From a virus, in IMG/VR virus record IMGVR_UViG_3300031276_000001, positions 1-56,622 of that record: DNA of 56,622 bases. One strand, written 5' to 3'. Below the pieces are notes generated by a model that was not told the origin of the DNA, ran no database searches, and saw nothing but the letters and a program-made list of their open reading frames with translations. The position numbers were made by a program, and so were the translations under genes. Below are positions 3,360 through 50,471 of this stretch, piece after piece (positions within the stretch are counted from its first letter, which is position 1; each line of letters starts with the position of its first letter).

Positions 3360-4035
3360 CTTTATTTTCCTTTATTTTTTTTATATTATACATTTCATTA
3401 AAAGCGGCTTGAAGTACTTCGTTTTTAAATTTAATTTTACTATTCGCTTCCTTAGCTTCTTTCATTGTTTCTTTTAATAATTCTTCTACATCTTTATCAA
3501 CTCTTTTAAATTGGTCACCTGCTAAATTACAAAGTGCAAAAATTAATAATGTTGGAACTGGTCTTGCAATTTTTTTTATTTTTTCCAGTTTTTGTTTTTC
3601 TTTATATTTTATTATTAAATTTCCATCTTCGTCTTTTTTGTTGGTAATAAAAGGTATCTTTTCCATTAATTTTTTTGTTTCTTCATATTCATAATAGCCT
3701 AATGCTTCTTGCCATAAACTTTTTTTTAAATTTGCAACTAATTTTTCTTTTGAGCTATTAAGAACGCCCGATAAGTCCAAGTTTTGACCAATATTTTTGA
3801 CATATACATTATACAAATATTTAGTAATTTTCAATTCTTTGATAATCCAATCGCAACTTTTACCATCGTTTGTAAATTCTTTAACTTTTTCCAATTCATA
3901 TTTATATTTTTGTAATGAACTATAAGCCAGTTTTAATTTTTCTGCAATTTGTCTTTCTGTTTTTCCTTCTTCTCTCCAACTTTTTATAAGTTCAAGATTT
4001 GGTAAAACATGTGTTTCATATTTACTTTTAGGCAT
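3340..4035 (-). CDS. Putative terminase small subunit (N-terminal HTH)
   Basis: 231 aa with an HTH-like segment (GKTERQIAEKLKLAYSSLQKY). Overlaps the terL start, the classical position for a small terminase. Confidence 0.5.
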   Translation of the reverse strand: MPKSKYETHVLPNLELIKSWREEGKTERQIAEKLKLAYSSLQKYKYELEKVKEFTNDGKSCDWIIKELKITKYLYNVYVKNIGQNLDLSGVLNSSKEKLVANLKKSLWQEALGYYEYEETKKLMEKIPFITNKKDEDGNLIIKYKEKQKLEKIKKIARPVPTLLIFALCNLAGDQFKRVDKDVEELLKETMKEAKEANSKIKFKNEVLQAAFNEMYNIKKIKENKDGNKKE

Positions 4036-5319
4036 CTAAATCACCAAACTTTTATAAGGAATTTTCTTATCCTTTTCAATTAAAAATATATTTTCTGCTT
4101 CTTTTCCAGACTCATCTAAAATATATTTCATATATCTTTTTATTATTATATCGCAATAACAAGGTTCTATTTCCATACTATAACATATTCGTCCTGATTG
4201 TTCAGCTGCTATTAATGAAGTTCCTGAGCCTACAAACGGGTCATAAATACATTGACCAATATTTGTATTAAGTTTAATTGGTTTTAGCATACATTCGATT
4301 GGTTTTTGTGTTCCATGTCCAAATGTTTCTTCTATATTAGTATTCCCAACGCTGCTATTATTTTTAATATCCCATACAGTTGAAATGTCTTTTGCTCCTT
4401 GCCAATTATGATTTTTACCTCTTTTAACAGCATACCAACAGCCTTCATGTGCCCACTTAAAATCACCCATTGAAAAAGAAAAATTTTGTTTTCTCCATAT
4501 AATTTGACTAACTATTTCAAATCCTGACTCAATTATATTATTTGCAAATATATGTGATAGCTTTCCAGGATGCCAAACATAAACAATATTACCTGGGAAC
4601 AATTTATATGCTTCTGTCCATTCTGCAGTATCATCATTTTTTACTTTTCCTCTTGATTTTATTTGTTTTCCTTTTCTTTCTTTTGCTTCCGGGTCATATT
4701 TTACACCATATGGTGGATCAGTAATCATTAATATTGGTTCTACCCCATTTAATAATCTTTTTATATTTTCTTCTTTTGTACAATCACCACATAATAAAAA
4801 ATGTTTTCCAATTTGATATAAATATCCTGGTTTAGTTATTACTTTTTTTAAATCATTTTTTTCTTTTACTGCATTAAAATTATCGCCTTTTGAAGATTGT
4901 CCTTTATTATCCTTATCAAATTCTTTCATCATATTTTCAAATTCACCTTCAGAAAATCCAGTTAAAATAAAATCAGTAAAATCATTTTCTTTTAATTCTT
5001 CTAAAATTTCCGTTAGCTTTTCAAATTCCCATTTACCAGAAATTTTATTTAAGGCAATATTAAGTGCCTTTTCTTTTTCTTTTGAAATATTTATTTTTAT
5101 AATATCAATTTCTTTATATTTAAGATCTTTAAGTACTTCAATCCTTTGATGTCCACCAATAATAGTATTATCTTTATTAACTATTATTGGGTCAATATAT
5201 CCAAATTCTTCAATACTTCTTTTTATATCTTGATATTCTTTATCTTTTGAAGTAAGCTTTTTTCTTGGATTATATTCAGCGTTTATTAATTTATTTATAT
5301 CAATTTTTTCAAATACCAT
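4036..5319 (-). CDS. ParB-like nuclease domain fused to an N6/N4 DNA methyltransferase
   Basis: N-terminal ParB-type motif (YNPRK...IIGGHQR), catalytic ITDPPYGV, C-terminal AdoMet motif FVGSGTSLIAAE. Preferred start is the ATG at 5319 behind GGAGGA (5330-5325); the track ORF starts at 5334. Confidence 0.85.
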   Translation of the reverse strand: MVFEKIDINKLINAEYNPRKKLTSKDKEYQDIKRSIEEFGYIDPIIVNKDNTIIGGHQRIEVLKDLKYKEIDIIKINISKEKEKALNIALNKISGKWEFEKLTEILEELKENDFTDFILTGFSEGEFENMMKEFDKDNKGQSSKGDNFNAVKEKNDLKKVITKPGYLYQIGKHFLLCGDCTKEENIKRLLNGVEPILMITDPPYGVKYDPEAKERKGKQIKSRGKVKNDDTAEWTEAYKLFPGNIVYVWHPGKLSHIFANNIIESGFEIVSQIIWRKQNFSFSMGDFKWAHEGCWYAVKRGKNHNWQGAKDISTVWDIKNNSSVGNTNIEETFGHGTQKPIECMLKPIKLNTNIGQCIYDPFVGSGTSLIAAEQSGRICYSMEIEPCYCDIIIKRYMKYILDESGKEAENIFLIEKDKKIPYKSLVI

Positions 5320-5337
5320 TTTTATCCTCCACACTAC

Positions 5338-45582: not shown

Positions 45583-45951
45583 TTATTTTACATATATATT
45601 TTTGTTTATAAATTCAATAAATGCATTATCTTTTACATAGTCTTTTTCAATAAGTTTACATCCACCTGTTTTTATTTCATATAGATTATCATAAGTATAA
45701 AACCGATGGCATTTAAGGCATTTAACTCCTGTAAGCATAAATTCAAATAAGTAGTTACACTTTGGACATATTTGCATATATTCAAATTGTTTTATTTTTA
45801 TCATTTTTTGCATGTTTTTCTCATATTCATCTTTTGTATATGTAATTAGTTCAACATTACCACAATTACATTTATATCCTTCCCAATATTCATCATCATA
45901 ATAATTACTATCTTTTAATTCCATTTCATTCATACATATTTCACATTTCAA
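45583..45951 (-). CDS. Multi-zinc-ribbon protein (122 aa)
   Basis: CEIC...CNCG...CPKC...CLKC pairs. Confidence 0.55.
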   Translation of the reverse strand: MKCEICMNEMELKDSNYYDDEYWEGYKCNCGNVELITYTKDEYEKNMQKMIKIKQFEYMQICPKCNYLFEFMLTGVKCLKCHRFYTYDNLYEIKTGGCKLIEKDYVKDNAFIEFINKNIYVK

Positions 45952-46019
45952 AATATTCCCACCTACTTATTATTTTTTACTAGTTATTTTATTCGTCATA
46001 AATTTAATTATCCTTAAAT

Positions 46020-46409
46020 TTAAAATTCTGGTTTTGTTGCTCTTTCAATATAATTTACTGCTCCTCTAAAGTAATTAGTTCTATAAACTTCTTTTTTTGG
46101 ATTCCATTGAGATACTATAAATAAATTTTTCTCATAATGTATTGATATGTAATATCCTTTATATTCAAATATATCTTTATTTAAATCATATAAAATATCA
46201 ACTTTTTTATAACATGGTTCTTCATCTACTCTAATAAATAATATATTTGTCCCAGTTAATATAATTTGTTGCAAAATTTCATAATTAATATTAATACATT
46301 CAGCTAAAGCATCTTTTGTCATTACACTTGATAATATTTTATTCTTGTCATAATATATCTGAAATTCTTGTTTATCATCAGTAACTCGTAATAATTCATC
46401 TAATTTCAT
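46020..46409 (-). CDS. Hypothetical protein (129 aa)
   Basis: Track ORF with a GGAGA RBS. Confidence 0.6.
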   Translation of the reverse strand: MKLDELLRVTDDKQEFQIYYDKNKILSSVMTKDALAECININYEILQQIILTGTNILFIRVDEEPCYKKVDILYDLNKDIFEYKGYYISIHYEKNLFIVSQWNPKKEVYRTNYFRGAVNYIERATKPEF

Positions 46410-46539
46410 AAATTTAATTCTCCATTCTTAAATTTTTTATAACAAACTGGACAAATATATCTTTTTTATCATTTTAAACCCTAATATTTTTGCAAGTTTT
46501 AGTGCTGTTTTTATATTTGAAGTGATTCCAGTTTATCAT

Positions 46540-46682
46540 CAATTTAAATAATATTAGTCAAATACCTGGGTCTAACTACCAAGGTATTTGACTATATTGA
46601 AAAAATACTTTTAAATAATATTATGTAAAACCCCACCATTTTACATATGTTATTCCTGAACTAGCCCAACAATAACACCCTC
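46540..46682 (-). ncRNA. Candidate small RNA with three hairpins, two of them followed by the same 13-mer
   Basis: Downstream of the promoter at 46717-46689. Hairpins are gttatt/aataac (46649-46676), atgtaaaa/ttttacat (46623-46646, G-rich loop on the minus strand) and a 13-bp stem at 46555-46567 / 46582-46594. AATATTATTTAAA follows the last two (46622-46610 and 46555-46543). Confidence 0.35.
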
Positions 46683-46688
46683 ATTAAT

Positions 46689-46717
46689 ATTATATAATAA
46701 CTATAAATTGATTTCAA
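46689..46717 (-). promoter_or_regulatory. Near-consensus sigma70 promoter
   Basis: On the minus strand: TTGAAA (46717-46712), 17 nt, TATAAT (46694-46689), inside a 450-bp non-coding gap. Confidence 0.5.
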
Positions 46718-46860
46718 TATATATTTGCAAAAACTTATTTGCATTTATTTTTCAATAAAAAAAAGAGTTTAGAGCTTTTTTTTTATTATTCAGTTCTTTA
46801 TTTCCCTCATCTTTTTTTTATAATTATTTTTTTTATTTTAGGTTAGATGGATAAATCCTT

Positions 46861-47357
46861 CTAACCTATTGAATATAGTCCAGTCTTATTTCTTTGATCG
46901 TTTTTTTCTATTGTCTTTTCAAGTTTTTCACGCCATCTAATAATGCTATATTTTAATTGTTTCTTAGTTTTACCATTTTTTACTTTTTTTAACGTATTAT
47001 TTAAAAGGTCTTCACTATATTGGTTTTTGACATGGATGTAACCTACCTTTTTTCCCACTAAGACCATTAAACATTAAAATATTATTTGGATAAGTGAAAT
47101 CATTTGGTATCAATCTTTTTGTTAATTTTATTTGATTATTGTATATATCGGTATTTGTAACTTTTTTCTTTTCTGGTCTAATATTTTTTTCTTCCTTTTT
47201 AATAATTATAGGATAATATCTTCCTGTCTTTTTATAAAATATACTTATTATTTCGTTTTTACGCATAGGTTGTATATTGCAATTCAAATGATTACTAGCT
47301 TTATCCTTTATCCAAATCCAATCATATTTAAACATATTAATATTTGATATTCTTAAT
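46861..47357 (-). pseudogene. Middle and 3' remnant of a disrupted N6/N4 DNA methyltransferase
   Basis: FKYDWIWIKDK...P...EIISIFYKK and ...RLHPCQKPI (an HPxQKP-type block), then a stop. The frame changes into 46861..47067 and no GSGT AdoMet motif follows. Confidence 0.5.
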
Positions 47358-48416
47358 CTACCTCCATTCAATTCCAATATAATCAAGTACTTTCCCCCAT
47401 CCAAAAACCTCACCTTTTTCATTTTTGTAACAAGACTTCATCCAATATTCCCATTCTTTTTGATTGGTTTCGTACAATCTATCAAATCTATGCGGCCTTT
47501 TCTTTTCAAGCTGAATCCCAAATCCACACATCGAACAACCAGTTCTTTGTGCTTTTGTTGTGAATAAATTACCATTTACATCTGTTTCAATAGTTCCATA
47601 AATATCTGGAATAGGAACATCTAGCTCTAATGCTAACTTTAAAATGTCCTGTCTATTGAATATTGCAAATGGAGCTGACCTGATTACTGATTTACCAAAA
47701 TAGTTACACCCGTTAATCATCAGGCTTTTACTCCTTCTACCTCCTTCACTTGCCATCATTCCCAGAAATGGGACTGAATTATTTTCTTTTGCCCAATCAT
47801 TACAGGGCTTTTCTTTTAAGTAATAACAACATTTGGATGATACTTTAAAGTCAGGTTTATTATAGTTTTCATTTTCATATCCGCCAAATTTTTCTAACCA
47901 AACCTTAGATAATTTCATTCTTGTATTTTTTCTATTACCTCCATATTTTCCGGTTTCGCCTGTCATAATTGCATGTCTAATTGTTGAGTTTTTTTCACTT
48001 GGGTTTTGTAAGTATTCTATTTTCTGGGCAATTTCTTTACTTAGTACTGGAAATCCAAATTCTTGTATTATATTTTGTTTATTCCAGTGTGTTCCATCTT
48101 TTTTCTTTGCAGATTTAAGTCTTTCAATTCCTAATTCTTTATGTATTTTTTGTATACTCATATCCTCAAGATAACTTACTGATATTCCTGGAACATTAAT
48201 TCCTATATTTTTCAAAAATAAATATAAGGTTATACTATCCAATCCTCCAATACTAACATGACAATTTAATCCTCTTTTTTGACATTCGTTGTAAAATTCC
48301 CATGCTCTTGCATATGCATAATTTTTCTTAAATTCGTAACTTCCTTTTTGCTTTACCATAAAATCTGCTATCTTTTTATCTGCTCCAATACTTTTCATTC
48401 TCTCAATTACATTCAT
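47358..48416 (-). CDS. PAPS-reductase-family (PP-loop ATPase; IbrA/DndC-like) protein
   Basis: PP-loop-like HVSIGGLDS near residue 55 and a C-terminal Cys cluster (RTGCSMCGFG); 352 aa. Confidence 0.65.
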   Translation of the reverse strand: MNVIERMKSIGADKKIADFMVKQKGSYEFKKNYAYARAWEFYNECQKRGLNCHVSIGGLDSITLYLFLKNIGINVPGISVSYLEDMSIQKIHKELGIERLKSAKKKDGTHWNKQNIIQEFGFPVLSKEIAQKIEYLQNPSEKNSTIRHAIMTGETGKYGGNRKNTRMKLSKVWLEKFGGYENENYNKPDFKVSSKCCYYLKEKPCNDWAKENNSVPFLGMMASEGGRRSKSLMINGCNYFGKSVIRSAPFAIFNRQDILKLALELDVPIPDIYGTIETDVNGNLFTTKAQRTGCSMCGFGIQLEKKRPHRFDRLYETNQKEWEYWMKSCYKNEKGEVFGWGKVLDYIGIEWR

Positions 48417-48550
48417 ACTCTACCACCTTCCTGAATTGCTTTGTCTATGTTAATAAGTCTGTTATATAACAACCTACAATGTTCTATTGTTTCATCTATT
48501 ATTATGCTTTCGGCTTTTTTGGGATATATCCTATATTTGTAAGCTTTCAT
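48413..48550 (-). mobile_element. Stub resembling the N-terminus of an IS200/IS605-family TnpB (OrfB) (45 aa)
   Basis: MKAYKYRIYPKKAESIIIDETIEHCRLLYNRLI matches the characteristic TnpB N-terminal pattern (KxYKYRIYP...Q...RxxYN). It ends in an ATGA overlap with the PAPS-reductase gene and has no RuvC domain. Confidence 0.45.
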
Positions 48551-48604
48551 ATTTTCACCACCTTTCAATATAATAAGTGTACCACTATTACATATACTTG
48601 TCAA

Positions 48605-48633
48605 CACTATAATTGTATGTTAATATTATAGTG
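48605..48633. promoter_or_regulatory. 9-bp inverted repeat (operator candidate) in the divergent promoter region
   Basis: cactataat (48605-48613) / attatagtg (48625-48633), overlapping a TTGTCA-17-TAATAT promoter-like element for the RHH gene. Confidence 0.4.
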
Positions 48634-48646
48634 AGGTGATAATAAT

Positions 48647-48799
48647 ATGATTAAAGAAGATAATACAAGAATTCAAGTTACAATTCCTAAAGATTTAAAA
48701 AAACAATTAGAAAAAAAAGCAAAAGAAAATGACCGTTCAGTAAGTAATTATATTGTTAAATTAATTAGAGATGATGTTATGCAGAATACCCCCACCTAA
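48647..48799 (+). CDS. Ribbon-helix-helix protein (50 aa)
   Basis: Hand-translated: MIKEDNTRIQVTIPKDLKKQLEKKAKENDRSVSNYIVKLIRDDVMQNTPT. GAGGTG RBS. Confidence 0.55.
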   Translation: MIKEDNTRIQVTIPKDLKKQLEKKAKENDRSVSNYIVKLIRDDVMQNTPT

Positions 48800-48818
48800 G
48801 AGGATGGGGGTATTCTGC
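48781..48818. terminator. 14-bp GC-containing hairpin between convergent genes
   Basis: gcagaataccccca (48781-48794) pairs with tgggggtattctgc (48805-48818). Confidence 0.6.
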
Positions 48819-48819
48819 A

Positions 48820-49017
48820 TTAAAAAGATAAATTAATATCAATCTCCTTATCCCATTTTGCATAAGTTAAAGAATAAGGAAGATCACACAATATTAAATC
48901 AATATATTTATTTTTTATATTATTCATTTCGATCAAACAATCACCATTTATTAATTTATTCATATTAAAATAATCACTTTCTATATCTGGTAAAATTTTT
49001 TTATAATTATCGCTCAT
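48820..49017 (-). pseudogene. 5' fragment of the disrupted DNA methyltransferase
   Basis: MSDNYKK...LINGDCLIEMNNIKNKYIDLILCDLPYSLTYAKWDKEIDINLSF, then a stop. It has a typical MTase N-terminus with a D(P/L)PY motif and stops exactly at the hairpin. Confidence 0.55.
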
Positions 49018-49516
49018 CACCATATTGAAGCCAATGTTTTCTTTTATTTCTTGCAAAAAATTCAAAATATTGTGGATATGATACTTTTTCAATAATATCA
49101 TATGTTTCATCTGGTTTTCGACTATGCTCTCTTCTATTTGCAAAAAACACAGTTGGACATTGTTGTCTTTTCCCATCAACTATTTTGTATGGTAATTTCC
49201 CTTTTACTCCAAATAATAATAATTCATGTTGACCTCTAAAATATTGACCTAAGCCAAATCTATCTTTTACCCAAACAATATTTGTTATATATTTATAACC
49301 ATAAATTTTTAAAGCTTCCAAACCATTGATTAAAAATTTATTTGTTACCCACAGATAGCAATGACTATTTTTAATATCTGGTAGAAATTTTTTATAATTA
49401 TATATTTCATTAATAGACATTAAGTTATAATGTCTATCTGCTCCTCTTTTTATTTTACCACCACCCTTTTCAGGCCATGGAGGGTCTAAATATAGAGTTC
49501 CAACATCATAAGTCAT
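49007..49516 (-). CDS. MT-A70-family N6-adenine DNA methyltransferase
   Basis: LYLDPPWPE catalytic motif, plus YLWVTN and HSRKPDE blocks; 169 aa. Confidence 0.8.
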   Translation of the reverse strand: MTYDVGTLYLDPPWPEKGGGKIKRGADRHYNLMSINEIYNYKKFLPDIKNSHCYLWVTNKFLINGLEALKIYGYKYITNIVWVKDRFGLGQYFRGQHELLLFGVKGKLPYKIVDGKRQQCPTVFFANRREHSRKPDETYDIIEKVSYPQYFEFFARNKRKHWLQYGDER

Positions 49517-50471
49517 TTTTCCCTCCTATTAATCTATCTAAAAATTTACATGCTATTTTATTTGATAATTCATGATCAATATTTGAATTATCTTGTATTA
49601 TACAAGCAAGATTACTTTGCCATGCATAATACATACTACCTCCTGACTTATCATTTTTTAGTTCTTCTAAAATTCTTTTCATTGCTTTTTCATAACTATT
49701 CATACTTCCAAATTTTTGTTTCAACAATCTTTCAATTTCAATGAAATTATTTAAAACTTCATCGAATAAACATTTTTCAGAATTTGTAAATTTGTGATCA
49801 ATATCCATTTCAAAATTTAAAATTATTTCACGATTTCTATCTTTTAGTTTATTAATCTTATTATCATAAGACAACGGTCCATCTATAATATTTCCATCTG
49901 CAAATATATCACTGCATAATCTATTAAGCATTTCAAAAATTTCGTTAGGTTCTTTTTTTGTACCATCTATTTCATTTCCATAAAATATAAAGCTTGAATT
50001 TGTTAAAATTGTTGCAGCTGCTAACAACATTCTACCTTCTAATGTATTTTTAAAATCAAGTTTTCCCATATAATCAGATATATTATTTTTTCCATATCTT
50101 TTTATCCATTCACATATTTTATTAAAATTACAATCACCACAAGTTTTTAATTTTATGTCAAATAAATCCATTATACATTTATTAATTTTTTTATTTTTAA
50201 TATCTATAAAGTCATAAAGTTCTTTATGTTCTATCAATTCAATTGGCTCTATTTGGTTTATAAAATTAGCATCTATTTCTTCTTTTGTTTTATATGTAAA
50301 ATCAAGAAGAAATATTATTGAATCCACAAAATTACTCATTATTAGGTAAATTTCTTCTTGATCTGCATCTAATTCATTTTTTATAAGTTTATCTAATTTT
50401 ATTCTAAGTTCATTTTGTGTTTCTCTTAATTGTTCCATAAACATAATTGTACTATTATCCATTTTTCCCAT
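49506..50471 (-). CDS. Hypothetical protein sharing a ~50-aa module with ORF 50920..51657
   Basis: EGRMLLAAATILTNSSFIFYGNEIDGTKKEPNEIFEMLNRLCSDIF aligns with EGKLLLAAISVLTTSPFIFKNKSYLGSKLHPEQVCSMLDELKNDIF. Confidence 0.6.
   Translation of the reverse strand: MGKMDNSTIMFMEQLRETQNELRIKLDKLIKNELDADQEEIYLIMSNFVDSIIFLLDFTYKTKEEIDANFINQIEPIELIEHKELYDFIDIKNKKINKCIMDLFDIKLKTCGDCNFNKICEWIKRYGKNNISDYMGKLDFKNTLEGRMLLAAATILTNSSFIFYGNEIDGTKKEPNEIFEMLNRLCSDIFADGNIIDGPLSYDNKINKLKDRNREIILNFEMDIDHKFTNSEKCLFDEVLNNFIEIERLLKQKFGSMNSYEKAMKRILEELKNDKSGGSMYYAWQSNLACIIQDNSNIDHELSNKIACKFLDRLIGGKNDL

Follow-up and report, generated by a model that had tools for sequence, protein, structure and literature searches.

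Insertion sequences (ISs) of the IS200/IS605 family insert 3′ of a fixed target and do not duplicate it, and in IS608 and ISDra2, which reportedly move as single strands by 'peel-and-paste' transposition, the target doubles as the transposon-adjacent motif (TAM) of the RNA-guided nuclease TnpB. In some IS605 elements, which carry arc and tnpB with or without tnpA, ribbon-helix-helix (RHH) proteins called Arc bind the bidirectional arc/tnpB promoter and repress PtnpB, as found by chromatin immunoprecipitation sequencing (ChIP-seq) and reporter assays (Moon, Zedaveinyte, Wiegand & Sternberg, bioRxiv 10.64898/2026.09.24.754181, 2026). Elements consisting of arc and tnpB only, and Arc homologs beside homing endonucleases, were described in the same work. 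Known exaptations of TnpB elements keep TnpB, often inactivated, as an RNA-guided regulator, and an archaeal 'RHH/MazE-TnpB' arrangement, in which the RHH gene lies upstream of and co-oriented with tnpB, has been suggested to form a toxin-antitoxin pair (Altae-Tran et al., PNAS 2023, PMC10691335). Here we describe a locus in the IMG/VR virus record IMGVR_UViG_3300031276_000001 (positions 1 to 56,622; this whole stretch of 56,622 nt is called the window), in which the left end of such an element, with its arc gene, its promoter and the start of tnpB, precedes a phosphoadenosine phosphosulfate (PAPS)-reductase-like gene within a split DNA methyltransferase (MTase) gene. The IS605-type element probably inserted into the MTase gene, and its tnpB and right end, together with 77 bp of the MTase gene, were then replaced by the PAPS-like gene.

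The window, in which the genes of the cassette lie mostly on the minus strand, was compared with several metagenome contigs. L126 is from a sister of the window phage, and its intact MTase of 261 aa is designated P0001. L213 carries the same cassette between other flanks, L130 contains a full-length relative of the TnpB, L275 and L276 are IS-free phage contigs with the native context of the PAPS-like gene, and L128, from the JGI sample 3300031563, is of the same phage type as the window. The features of the locus are as follows.

47357-48827, minus strand: whole insert, 1,471 bp, replacing 77 bp of the MTase gene (L126 1791-1867; P0001 residues 59-84).
48828-49017, minus strand: N-terminal fragment of a beta-class MTase (PF01555), 100% amino acid identity to P0001 residues 4-58, with the D-L-P-Y catalytic motif.
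47018-47356, minus strand: middle fragment of the MTase, P0001 residues 85-197 (LRISNINMFKYDWIW...RLHPCQKPI).
48828-48832, minus strand: TTTAT target (TAM-like) pentanucleotide, in MTase codons I-N-L, the last bases before the IS left end.
48770-48827, minus strand: IS200/IS605-family left end (LE), a 17-nt linker and a subterminal hairpin (48779-48820) that is conserved in relatives.
48647-48799, plus strand: arc, the 50-aa RHH repressor gene of the IS, divergent from tnpB (RHH_5, E 4.6e-10; PHROG Arc-like repressor, E 5.7e-9).
48551-48646, no strand assigned: candidate bidirectional arc/tnpB promoter-operator region, 96 bp, from a promoter scan and conservation.
48413-48550, minus strand: tnpB stub open reading frame (ORF), 45 aa (Pfam PF12323, HTH_OrfB_IS605, E 1.7e-9, above the curated cut-off).
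47358-48416, minus strand: intact PP-loop/PAPS-reductase-like gene, 352 aa (PHROG 424 "phosphoadenosine phosphosulfate reductase", E 1.2e-21).

A search with the two MTase pieces joined retrieved P0001, an intact PF01555 protein, with an E value of 1.7e-76. Both pieces are collinear with it (residues 4-58, then 85-197), and L126 is syntenic with the window upstream of the MTase gene (95.8% identity across 1.3 kb). The first-pass annotation, made from the letters of the window, had taken the locus for an MTase gene split by a cassette, and the uninterrupted gene was found here in a related phage. From exact string mapping, the empty site in L126 is GATATTAATTTAT/TATGGAATC...(77 nt)...AAGTAAA/TTAAGAATATC, while the occupied site in the window is GATATTAATTTAT/CTTTTTAATGCAG...(1,471 nt)...GGAGGTAGA/TTAAGAATATC (slashes mark junctions and element ends). 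At the right junction, GTAGA of the insert and GTAAA of the recipient match at four of the five positions. The TTTAT at the left junction belongs to the MTase gene, because the empty site of L126 already has it. About 25 related IS copies in unrelated flanks have the same pentanucleotide 17-20 nt 5′ of their left-end hairpin, replaced in a few by TTTAA or ATTAT. TTTAT followed by the left end without duplication is the signature of an IS200/IS605 insertion.

The N-terminal fragment encodes ...LINGDCLIEMNN...DLILCDLPYS...WDKEIDINL. Its ORF continues for two codons into the insert and ends, as the first-pass annotation had seen, at position 48820 (TAA at 48822-48820), at the foot of the hairpin. 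The fragment is identical to L126 at 162 of 165 nt (98.2%; 98.8% in the BLAST segment), and all three differences are synonymous. The MTase sequence restarts at 47356, 1 nt past the stop codon of the PAPS-like gene, and reads LRISNINMFKYDWIWIKDK...RLHPCQKPI in frame to a stop at 47017-47015. This continuation had been recognized before, and so had the loss of the S-adenosylmethionine (AdoMet) motif: residues 198-261 of P0001, the 64 C-terminal residues with AdoMet motif I (FxGxG-type; MGVGST in P0001), have no counterpart in the whole window by tblastn. The frame break that was proposed for the continuation is not there; the MTase homology just stops at 47018/47019, a second and independent breakpoint. 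A third MTase fragment had been assigned to 46861-47067, but the 68-aa ORF at this position showed no collinear similarity to the C-terminus of P0001 (best BLASTP E 2.2).

As compared with L126, the middle fragment is 97% identical over the initial 69 nt and about 72% identical over the remainder, with a boundary of an allele mosaic near 47288. The nonsynonymous and synonymous divergences (dN and dS) were 0.18 and 0.95, respectively (dN/dS 0.19), and no frameshift and no internal stop was detected. The divergence is therefore ordinary allele mosaicism and not decay. The drop in identity from 98.8% to 78% across the insert had been read as two MTase flanks from different alleles. We rejected this reading, because the 69 nt 3′ of the insert are still 97% identical and the boundary lies about 70 nt further on, so that it is unrelated to the insert. 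A 20-nt inverted repeat around the middle fragment (47004-47023/47374-47393) was also dropped, as it was estimated to be at chance level in AT-rich DNA. Beta-class motif IV ((D/S)PP(Y/F)-type) is present as DLPY in the N-terminal fragment and P0001 carries PF01555, whereas neither fragment alone matches Pfam at E<=1, both being too short. The window has no continuous full-domain MTase ORF; what it has are residues 4-58 and 85-197 of 261, with 1,471 bp between them. As judged from its sequence, the MTase gene of the window is a pseudogene that was once intact as in L126, and it is dead twice over, because the insert splits it and its 64 terminal codons, those of the AdoMet motif among them, are missing.

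The left 380 bp of the insert consist of the LE, arc, the shared arc/tnpB promoter and tnpB codons 1-33. The first-pass annotation had suggested that an IS200/IS605-type element possibly helped the capture of the cassette. The involvement was correct, but the element was not merely a helper, since the left 380 bp are its own left end and the hairpin, the RHH gene and the operator are transposon parts. The hairpin, described before as 14 bp, has a perfect 16-bp stem with arms at 48779-48794 and 48805-48820. L213, L130 and L129a/b have a conserved version of it, and it recurs as a family motif at more than 20 further loci. When folded as single-stranded DNA, it gave -20.1 kcal/mol (z -8.8), while the hairpins of the relatives, which hold a conserved 5x5 internal loop, gave -10.7 to -14.

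The Arc protein of the window scored 39.5 bits against RHH_5 (cut-off 26) and E 3.4e-5 against RHH_1 in Pfam. Close homologs were found on two IMG/VR contigs, and the copy in L130 is divergent from a full-length TnpB of 369 aa (NCBIfam guided_TnpB, 285.7 bits against a cut-off of 100). A metagenome scan with the RHH alignment gave 58 loci, and in 30 of them a divergent TnpB, from one of three lineages, starts about 100-130 bp from the RHH start. By pairwise comparison, Arc-TnpB units of about 1,480 bp, 94-99.5% identical, occur in unrelated flanks in L226/L238/L267 and in L233/L234/L236/L239. Each unit extends from the right end to a left end just past the RHH stop and contains only arc and tnpB. 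The RHH gene thus belongs to the transposon. The right end of these units is a hairpin (CCCCCACTT...AAGTGGGGG) plus AGGTTCAAT. The forms seen among them are a hairpin followed by AGGTTCAAT/ or AGTAGTTCAC/ on the right and TTTAT/ followed by the linker and the hairpin on the left.

The promoter scan detected a near-consensus PtnpB (TTGACA at 48604-48599, a 17-nt spacer and TACACT) and a divergent Parc with an overlapping TTGTCA. Adjoining the -35 hexamer is a 9-bp inverted repeat, CACTATAAT (48633-48625)-N11-ATTATAGTG (48613-48605), which corresponds to the palindromic sequence noted beside the oppositely oriented RHH gene in the first-pass annotation. From its conservation and symmetry, this repeat is a putative Arc operator. 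Between the window and L213 the promoter region does not vary at all, L130 and L129a conserve it strongly, and CTTGTCAA is kept in all 11 aligned Arc loci. An exact-pattern scan of IMG/VR for the promoter gave only two contigs, both already found by the other searches.

The stub begins with MKAYKYRIYP and, as noted before, is a TnpB N-terminus. The earlier count of 45 TnpB residues was too high, however, as only codons 1-33 (48550-48452) are TnpB-derived; a 9-nt filler follows at 48448-48440, and the last codons are the ribosome-binding region of the PAPS-like gene, whose ATG overlaps the TGA of the stub (ATGA). In tblastn, the stub was 88% identical to the TnpB of L130 over residues 1-33 and 86% over residues 1-35, and it aligned to the N-termini of more than 60 other TnpBs. 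GTDB representative genomes scanned with the L130 TnpB gave only relatives of 44% identity or less, none of them with an RHH gene. In the collections searched, the Arc-TnpB sub-lineage is thus found only on viral and metagenomic contigs.

The remaining parts of a transposon are missing. Full-length TnpB with RuvC and zinc-finger domains is absent, since only residues 1-33 were found in the window by tblastn. A search of the whole window that allowed up to two mismatches did not find the right-end motifs of the relatives (GAAGCTCCCAC...GAGTAGTTCAC and ...GGAGGTTCAAT). Rfam gave nothing at gathering thresholds in the window and nothing at E<=5 in 45900-49600, neither an intron nor an omega-RNA-like family nor a riboswitch; this applies to omega-RNA as covered by Rfam, no dedicated model having been built. 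No ORF near the remnant could encode a Y1 (HUH) TnpA, the rest of the window not having been screened with a TnpA profile. Of the IS605 signs that the first-pass annotation had proposed to look for, the left-end hairpin was thus found, and the right end and the omega-RNA were not found in the window. The losses comprise tnpB downstream of codon 33, the omega-RNA and the right end, together with 77 bp of the MTase gene. The remnant would be unable to transpose or home, because it is without right end, omega-RNA and nuclease and its hairpin is without the internal loop of the family.

Several variations were observed among the relatives. At 48784-48788 (arc codons 46-48), the window has GAATA and L213, L130 and L129 have TTCAT; the substitutions turn the internal loop into the perfect 16-bp stem and change the C-terminus of Arc from HSSPT to QNTPT. 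These five substitutions look like a templated quasi-palindrome correction. In L226/L238/L267 and L234/L236, the linker of 9-12 nt between TTTAT and the conserved block of the left end is wholly different (for example CGTAAATAAG, CAGCATAAAAG and CTAAGAAAATAG) in copies otherwise 94-99.5% identical. Each variant recurs in several unrelated loci, that is, the tip of the left end is exchangeable or hypervariable. In L217, L242, L248, L249, L257, L262 and L263, the RHH homologs are divergent from homing-endonuclease-like genes instead of TnpB (HNH, GIY-YIG or zinc-finger types, judged by eye from the N-terminal sequences). A solo LE-arc-promoter module, with tnpB deleted or fragmentary, is present in L129 (3896-4150), L229, L235, L243 and L237. 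Arc has thus been retained repeatedly where the nuclease was lost, and not only in the window.

The 352-aa PP-loop gene, as named in the first-pass annotation, has the motif SIGGLDS at residues 55-61, which is invariant in 43 homologs. The AlphaFold model (predicted local distance difference test score 82.9) had adenosine phosphosulfate (APS)/PAPS reductases, TtuA, GMP synthetase and QueC as its Foldseek neighbours in the PDB, with a probability of 0.99-1.0 and a TM-score of about 0.5 on the target. The protein is thus predicted from its model to have a PAPS/APS-reductase-like fold, and no NCBIfam match and no PDB sequence match was obtained. The family has 5,351 homologs at E<=1e-10, mostly from Bacillota phages and prophages, and BLASTN against GenBank phages gave distant matches to the PAPS-like gene only (64-67%). 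The homology to the copies in other phages spans from about position -30 (GCAATT at 48439) to the stop codon. The dN/dS values against L213 and L275 were 0.08-0.14. These values indicate strong purifying selection, and the gene is therefore functional by evolutionary criteria. Against L275, nt 1-240 and 421-660 are free of mismatches and other parts have as many as 11 in 60 nt; the comparison with L213 gave a roughly complementary picture. This patchwork of identical and divergent blocks shows frequent homologous exchange. The proposal that a cassette entered the MTase gene and then decayed was thus right for the interruption by a cassette of about 1.5 kb, and wrong for the decay, since the PAPS-like gene is under selection and the MTase pieces carry neither frameshift nor stop. 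Overall, the first-pass annotation was partly supported, largely right in what it observed and partly right in how it interpreted it.

Among the IMG/VR relatives of the MT-A70 gene next to the MTase gene (44 loci) and of the PAPS-like gene (80 loci), no MTase fragments, stub or RHH gene were found, and L046 is the only one with a TnpB by the PAPS-like gene. In L046, a 415-aa TnpB of another lineage (3570-4990) has its right end, ...GAAGCTCCCACCTCTTAGGTGGCGAGTAGTTCAC, about 140 nt upstream of a PAPS-like gene that is 89% identical. L046 thereby provides a second, independent case of an IS605 element next to a PAPS-like gene.

The left end, arc, promoter and PAPS-like gene recur in L213 (97% and 93.5% identity), and the join to the region upstream of the PAPS-like gene is that of the window. 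A further 91 bp of the stub are deleted and only MKAYK of TnpB is left. The stub peptide is therefore dispensable, while arc and the promoter (100% conserved) are retained. The left flank of L213 is ...ATTTTAA/CTTTTTAATGCAG and the right flank is GGAGGTAGA/GTATGTTAGACA. Both differ from those of the window, and no homology was detectable between the flanks of L213, those of L275 and the window. In L213 the PAPS-like gene stands in its native downstream setting, because the right flank there is the beginning of the gene found after the PAPS-like gene in IS-free L275/L276.

The two copies raise the question of whether the LE-arc-stub-PAPS segment is itself a mobile composite, a 1.47-kb unit with a cryptic right end at the PAPS end that TnpA supplied in trans moved into TTTAT in the MTase gene and into TTTAA in L213. 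Both left flanks are consistent with the target of the family, and the two unrelated contexts agree to the single nucleotide at both boundaries (left, /CTTTTTAATGCAG; right, GGAGGTAGA/). However, no hairpin lies within 15 nt of the right boundary, and GTAGA/ is unlike the right-end termini of the family, TTCAC/ or TCAAT(G)/. In L213, moreover, the sequence after GGAGGTAGA is the native downstream gene, found also in L275/L276, so that the boundary is the natural end of the gene. In addition, IS200/IS605 insertion deletes no target, yet 77 bp of the MTase gene are gone. We regard such a composite as unlikely. The left junction bears on another possibility, that a single illegitimate recombination put a foreign segment starting at an old IS left end into the MTase gene, with TTTAT coincidental in AT-rich DNA. 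This junction is exactly at the first nucleotide of the LE and exactly 3′ of a pre-existing TTTAT, and L213 has the same LE terminus beside TTTAA. Phage mosaicism of that kind is common, and the right junction and the 47018/47019 breakpoint are clearly such joins, but a random join on the left needs two independent coincidences at single-nucleotide precision, which makes this explanation a little less likely still.

That the interruption is harmless or programmed, with the insert spliced from the mRNA as in IStrons or the enzyme assembled from split subunits, is very improbable. Clostridia have IS605-related IStrons that are spliced out of host genes, but no group I intron or other Rfam family was detected over the ranges given above, the left end carries an antisense protein gene instead of a ribozyme, and 77 nt of the MTase core (not a multiple of 3) as well as residues 198-261 are absent from the window. 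The enzyme could therefore be restored neither by splicing nor by the assembly of subunits. A chimera assembled from reads of IS-, PAPS- and MTase-bearing phages, conceivable because the PAPS genes of co-occurring phages are patchworks of near-identical blocks that may mislead assemblers, is equally improbable, and an assembly artefact is excluded, because 9,059 bp with the cassette arrangement are 100% identical in an independent Logan assembly of SRR8557363, L128 spans the PAPS-MTase junction and the second MTase breakpoint (window 47712-46430; 1,273 bp with the 3′ end of the PAPS-like gene, the middle fragment and the region downstream) at 99.2%, and L213 independently holds the arc-PAPS fusion.

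We therefore return to an IS605 insertion into the MTase gene followed by replacement of its nuclease part, which we consider the likely history. An IS200/IS605 Arc-TnpB element of about 1.5 kb (LE, arc, promoter, tnpB and omega-RNA/right end) would have transposed into TTTAT in the MTase gene of an ancestor. Separately, an Arc-TnpB IS would have resided upstream of the PAPS-like gene in some phage, comparable to the other TnpB lineage in L046. A deletion there would have fused tnpB codon 33 to position -30 of the PAPS-like gene and removed the remainder of tnpB and the right end. Homologous recombination within the shared LE-arc-tnpB 5′ region of about 380 bp may have brought this fusion into the IS resident in the MTase gene, and one microhomology join (GTAGA/GTAAA) downstream of the PAPS-like gene would have closed the replacement of tnpB, the right end and 77 bp of the MTase gene. 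The PAPS-like gene would then be transcribed from the strong predicted PtnpB, with the ribosome-binding site and start of tnpB, and translationally coupled through the ATGA. Because it stands behind PtnpB, on which Arc acts in other IS605 elements, it is expected to be repressed by Arc, and control by Arc is suggested by this analogy.

Several points weigh against this history or parts of it. The expected intermediate, a full-length IS in the MTase gene with its right end abutting TATGGAATC, is ...GATATTAATTTAT/LE-arc-full tnpB-right end/TATGGAATCATT..., and one IMG/VR scan for the end of the N-terminal fragment was empty for it. The order of events and the route of recombination are reconstructed from the end states only. 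The right junction is 1 nt past the stop of the PAPS-like gene, the very point where the native downstream gene starts in L213/L275; under illegitimate joining this position is a coincidence, and selection for an intact ORF limits the possible positions. The left flank of L213 is TTTAA and not TTTAT. The PAPS-like protein scored 19.9 bits against Pfam PF01507, below the cut-off of 22.5. Repression by Arc and activity of PtnpB are predictions for the window element, where the putative operator is recognized by conservation and symmetry.

A broader idea, which we put forward tentatively and hold to be doubtful, is that Arc, the bidirectional promoter and the start of tnpB were co-opted as a portable, self-regulated module for the PP-loop gene. 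Such a module may spread with resident IS copies as landing pads for recombination, and here it may have swapped a beta-class MTase for another enzyme in a methyltransferase island.

The neighbours of the locus include the following two genes.

46861-47067, minus strand: 68-aa ORF past the second breakpoint, not MTase-derived, found only in L128.
49007-49516, minus strand: intact MT-A70-family DNA methyltransferase gene, 169 aa, upstream neighbour (Pfam MT-A70, E 1.2e-18; PHROG 359, E 4.3e-37).

The 68-aa ORF had no significant Pfam or PHROG family. L126 is without the sequence corresponding to window 50088-48993, that is, the MT-A70 gene and the 3′ 60% of a 321-aa gene, and its MTase begins at a new ATG (MCKLPDIESDY). 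The window and L126 thus each retain a different one of two adjacent methyltransferases. A 42-nt direct repeat of 81% identity (48969-49010 and 49360-49401), encoding NYKK(I/F)LPDI, is present in the leader of the MTase and in the MT-A70 gene and may be a recombination scar linking both genes. A third methyltransferase gene, of 432 aa, is intact at 4036-5334 (PADLOC MTase_II, E 1.2e-90), and the phage therefore keeps DNA methylation despite the loss of the beta-class enzyme. The 450 bp of non-coding sequence on the 3′ side of the broken MTase (46410-46860) gave no Rfam match; a near-consensus minus-strand promoter (TTGAAA-17-TATAAT) lies there at 46717-46689, and two strong hairpins are located at 46555-46571/46578-46594 and at about 46620-46650.

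Every component of the locus is of a known kind: a PF01555 pseudogene, an IS605 left end, Arc, a TnpB stub and a PHROG 424 gene. What is new is the definition of the ends and the TTTAT target of a phage-borne Arc-TnpB lineage, and the swap of the nuclease for a cargo gene, with repressor and promoter kept, in two contexts. The locus is also a natural example at nucleotide resolution, with empty and occupied site, of a transposon with an RNA-guided nuclease in a phage methyltransferase gene. If Arc controls the PAPS-like gene, IS605 elements would have a simple route to donate regulated promoters to accessory genes of phages; otherwise, the locus would be a case of ordinary gene inactivation by an IS combined with phage mosaicism.

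As in the described Arc IS605 elements, the window has a small RHH gene divergent from tnpB, back-to-back promoters and symmetric repeats within a compact intergenic region, and arc inside the ends; some Arc proteins of those elements are also 50 aa or shorter, and their close relatives adjoin homing-endonuclease genes, as seen here. Unlike them, the window has a tnpB of 33 codons, its promoter precedes a PP-loop gene, and there is no right end or omega-RNA and no TnpA near the remnant. Insertion 3′ of a fixed target of 4-5 nt without duplication, a left-end hairpin about 17-19 nt from the cleavage site and a right-end hairpin followed by about 10 nt are shared with IS608 and ISDra2. The target is TTTAT here and not TTAC or TTGAT, the lineage has a left-end hairpin that contains a conserved 5x5 internal loop and extends into the 3′ end of arc, and the copy in the window is non-mobile. 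As with IStrons, the combinations of group I intron and IS605 in Clostridia, an IS605-type element stands in a protein-coding gene of a low-GC, Bacillota-type genome; the insert of the window is nevertheless not an IStron, because no ribozyme was detected and target sequence is deleted.

The PAPS-like gene belongs to the same family as the PAPS reductase morons of phages in PHROG 424, with 66% nucleotide identity to WAK79605.1 of Clostridium phage Saumur, the PP-loop motif and a wide distribution in Bacillota phages (at least 80 IMG/VR loci at 66-89% amino acid identity). These morons usually belong to an operon of small genes in one orientation that contains neither Arc nor TnpB, as in L275/L276, and the link between the PAPS-like gene and IS605 was seen only in the window, in L213 (Arc module) and in L046 (another TnpB IS upstream). 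Finally, the locus resembles the solo and decayed TnpB elements (Altae-Tran et al., PNAS 2023, PMC10691335) in that it is an immobilised IS605 derivative of which a part is kept beside a non-transposon gene. Unlike the exapted TnpB elements, however, it discards TnpB and keeps the regulator and the promoter.

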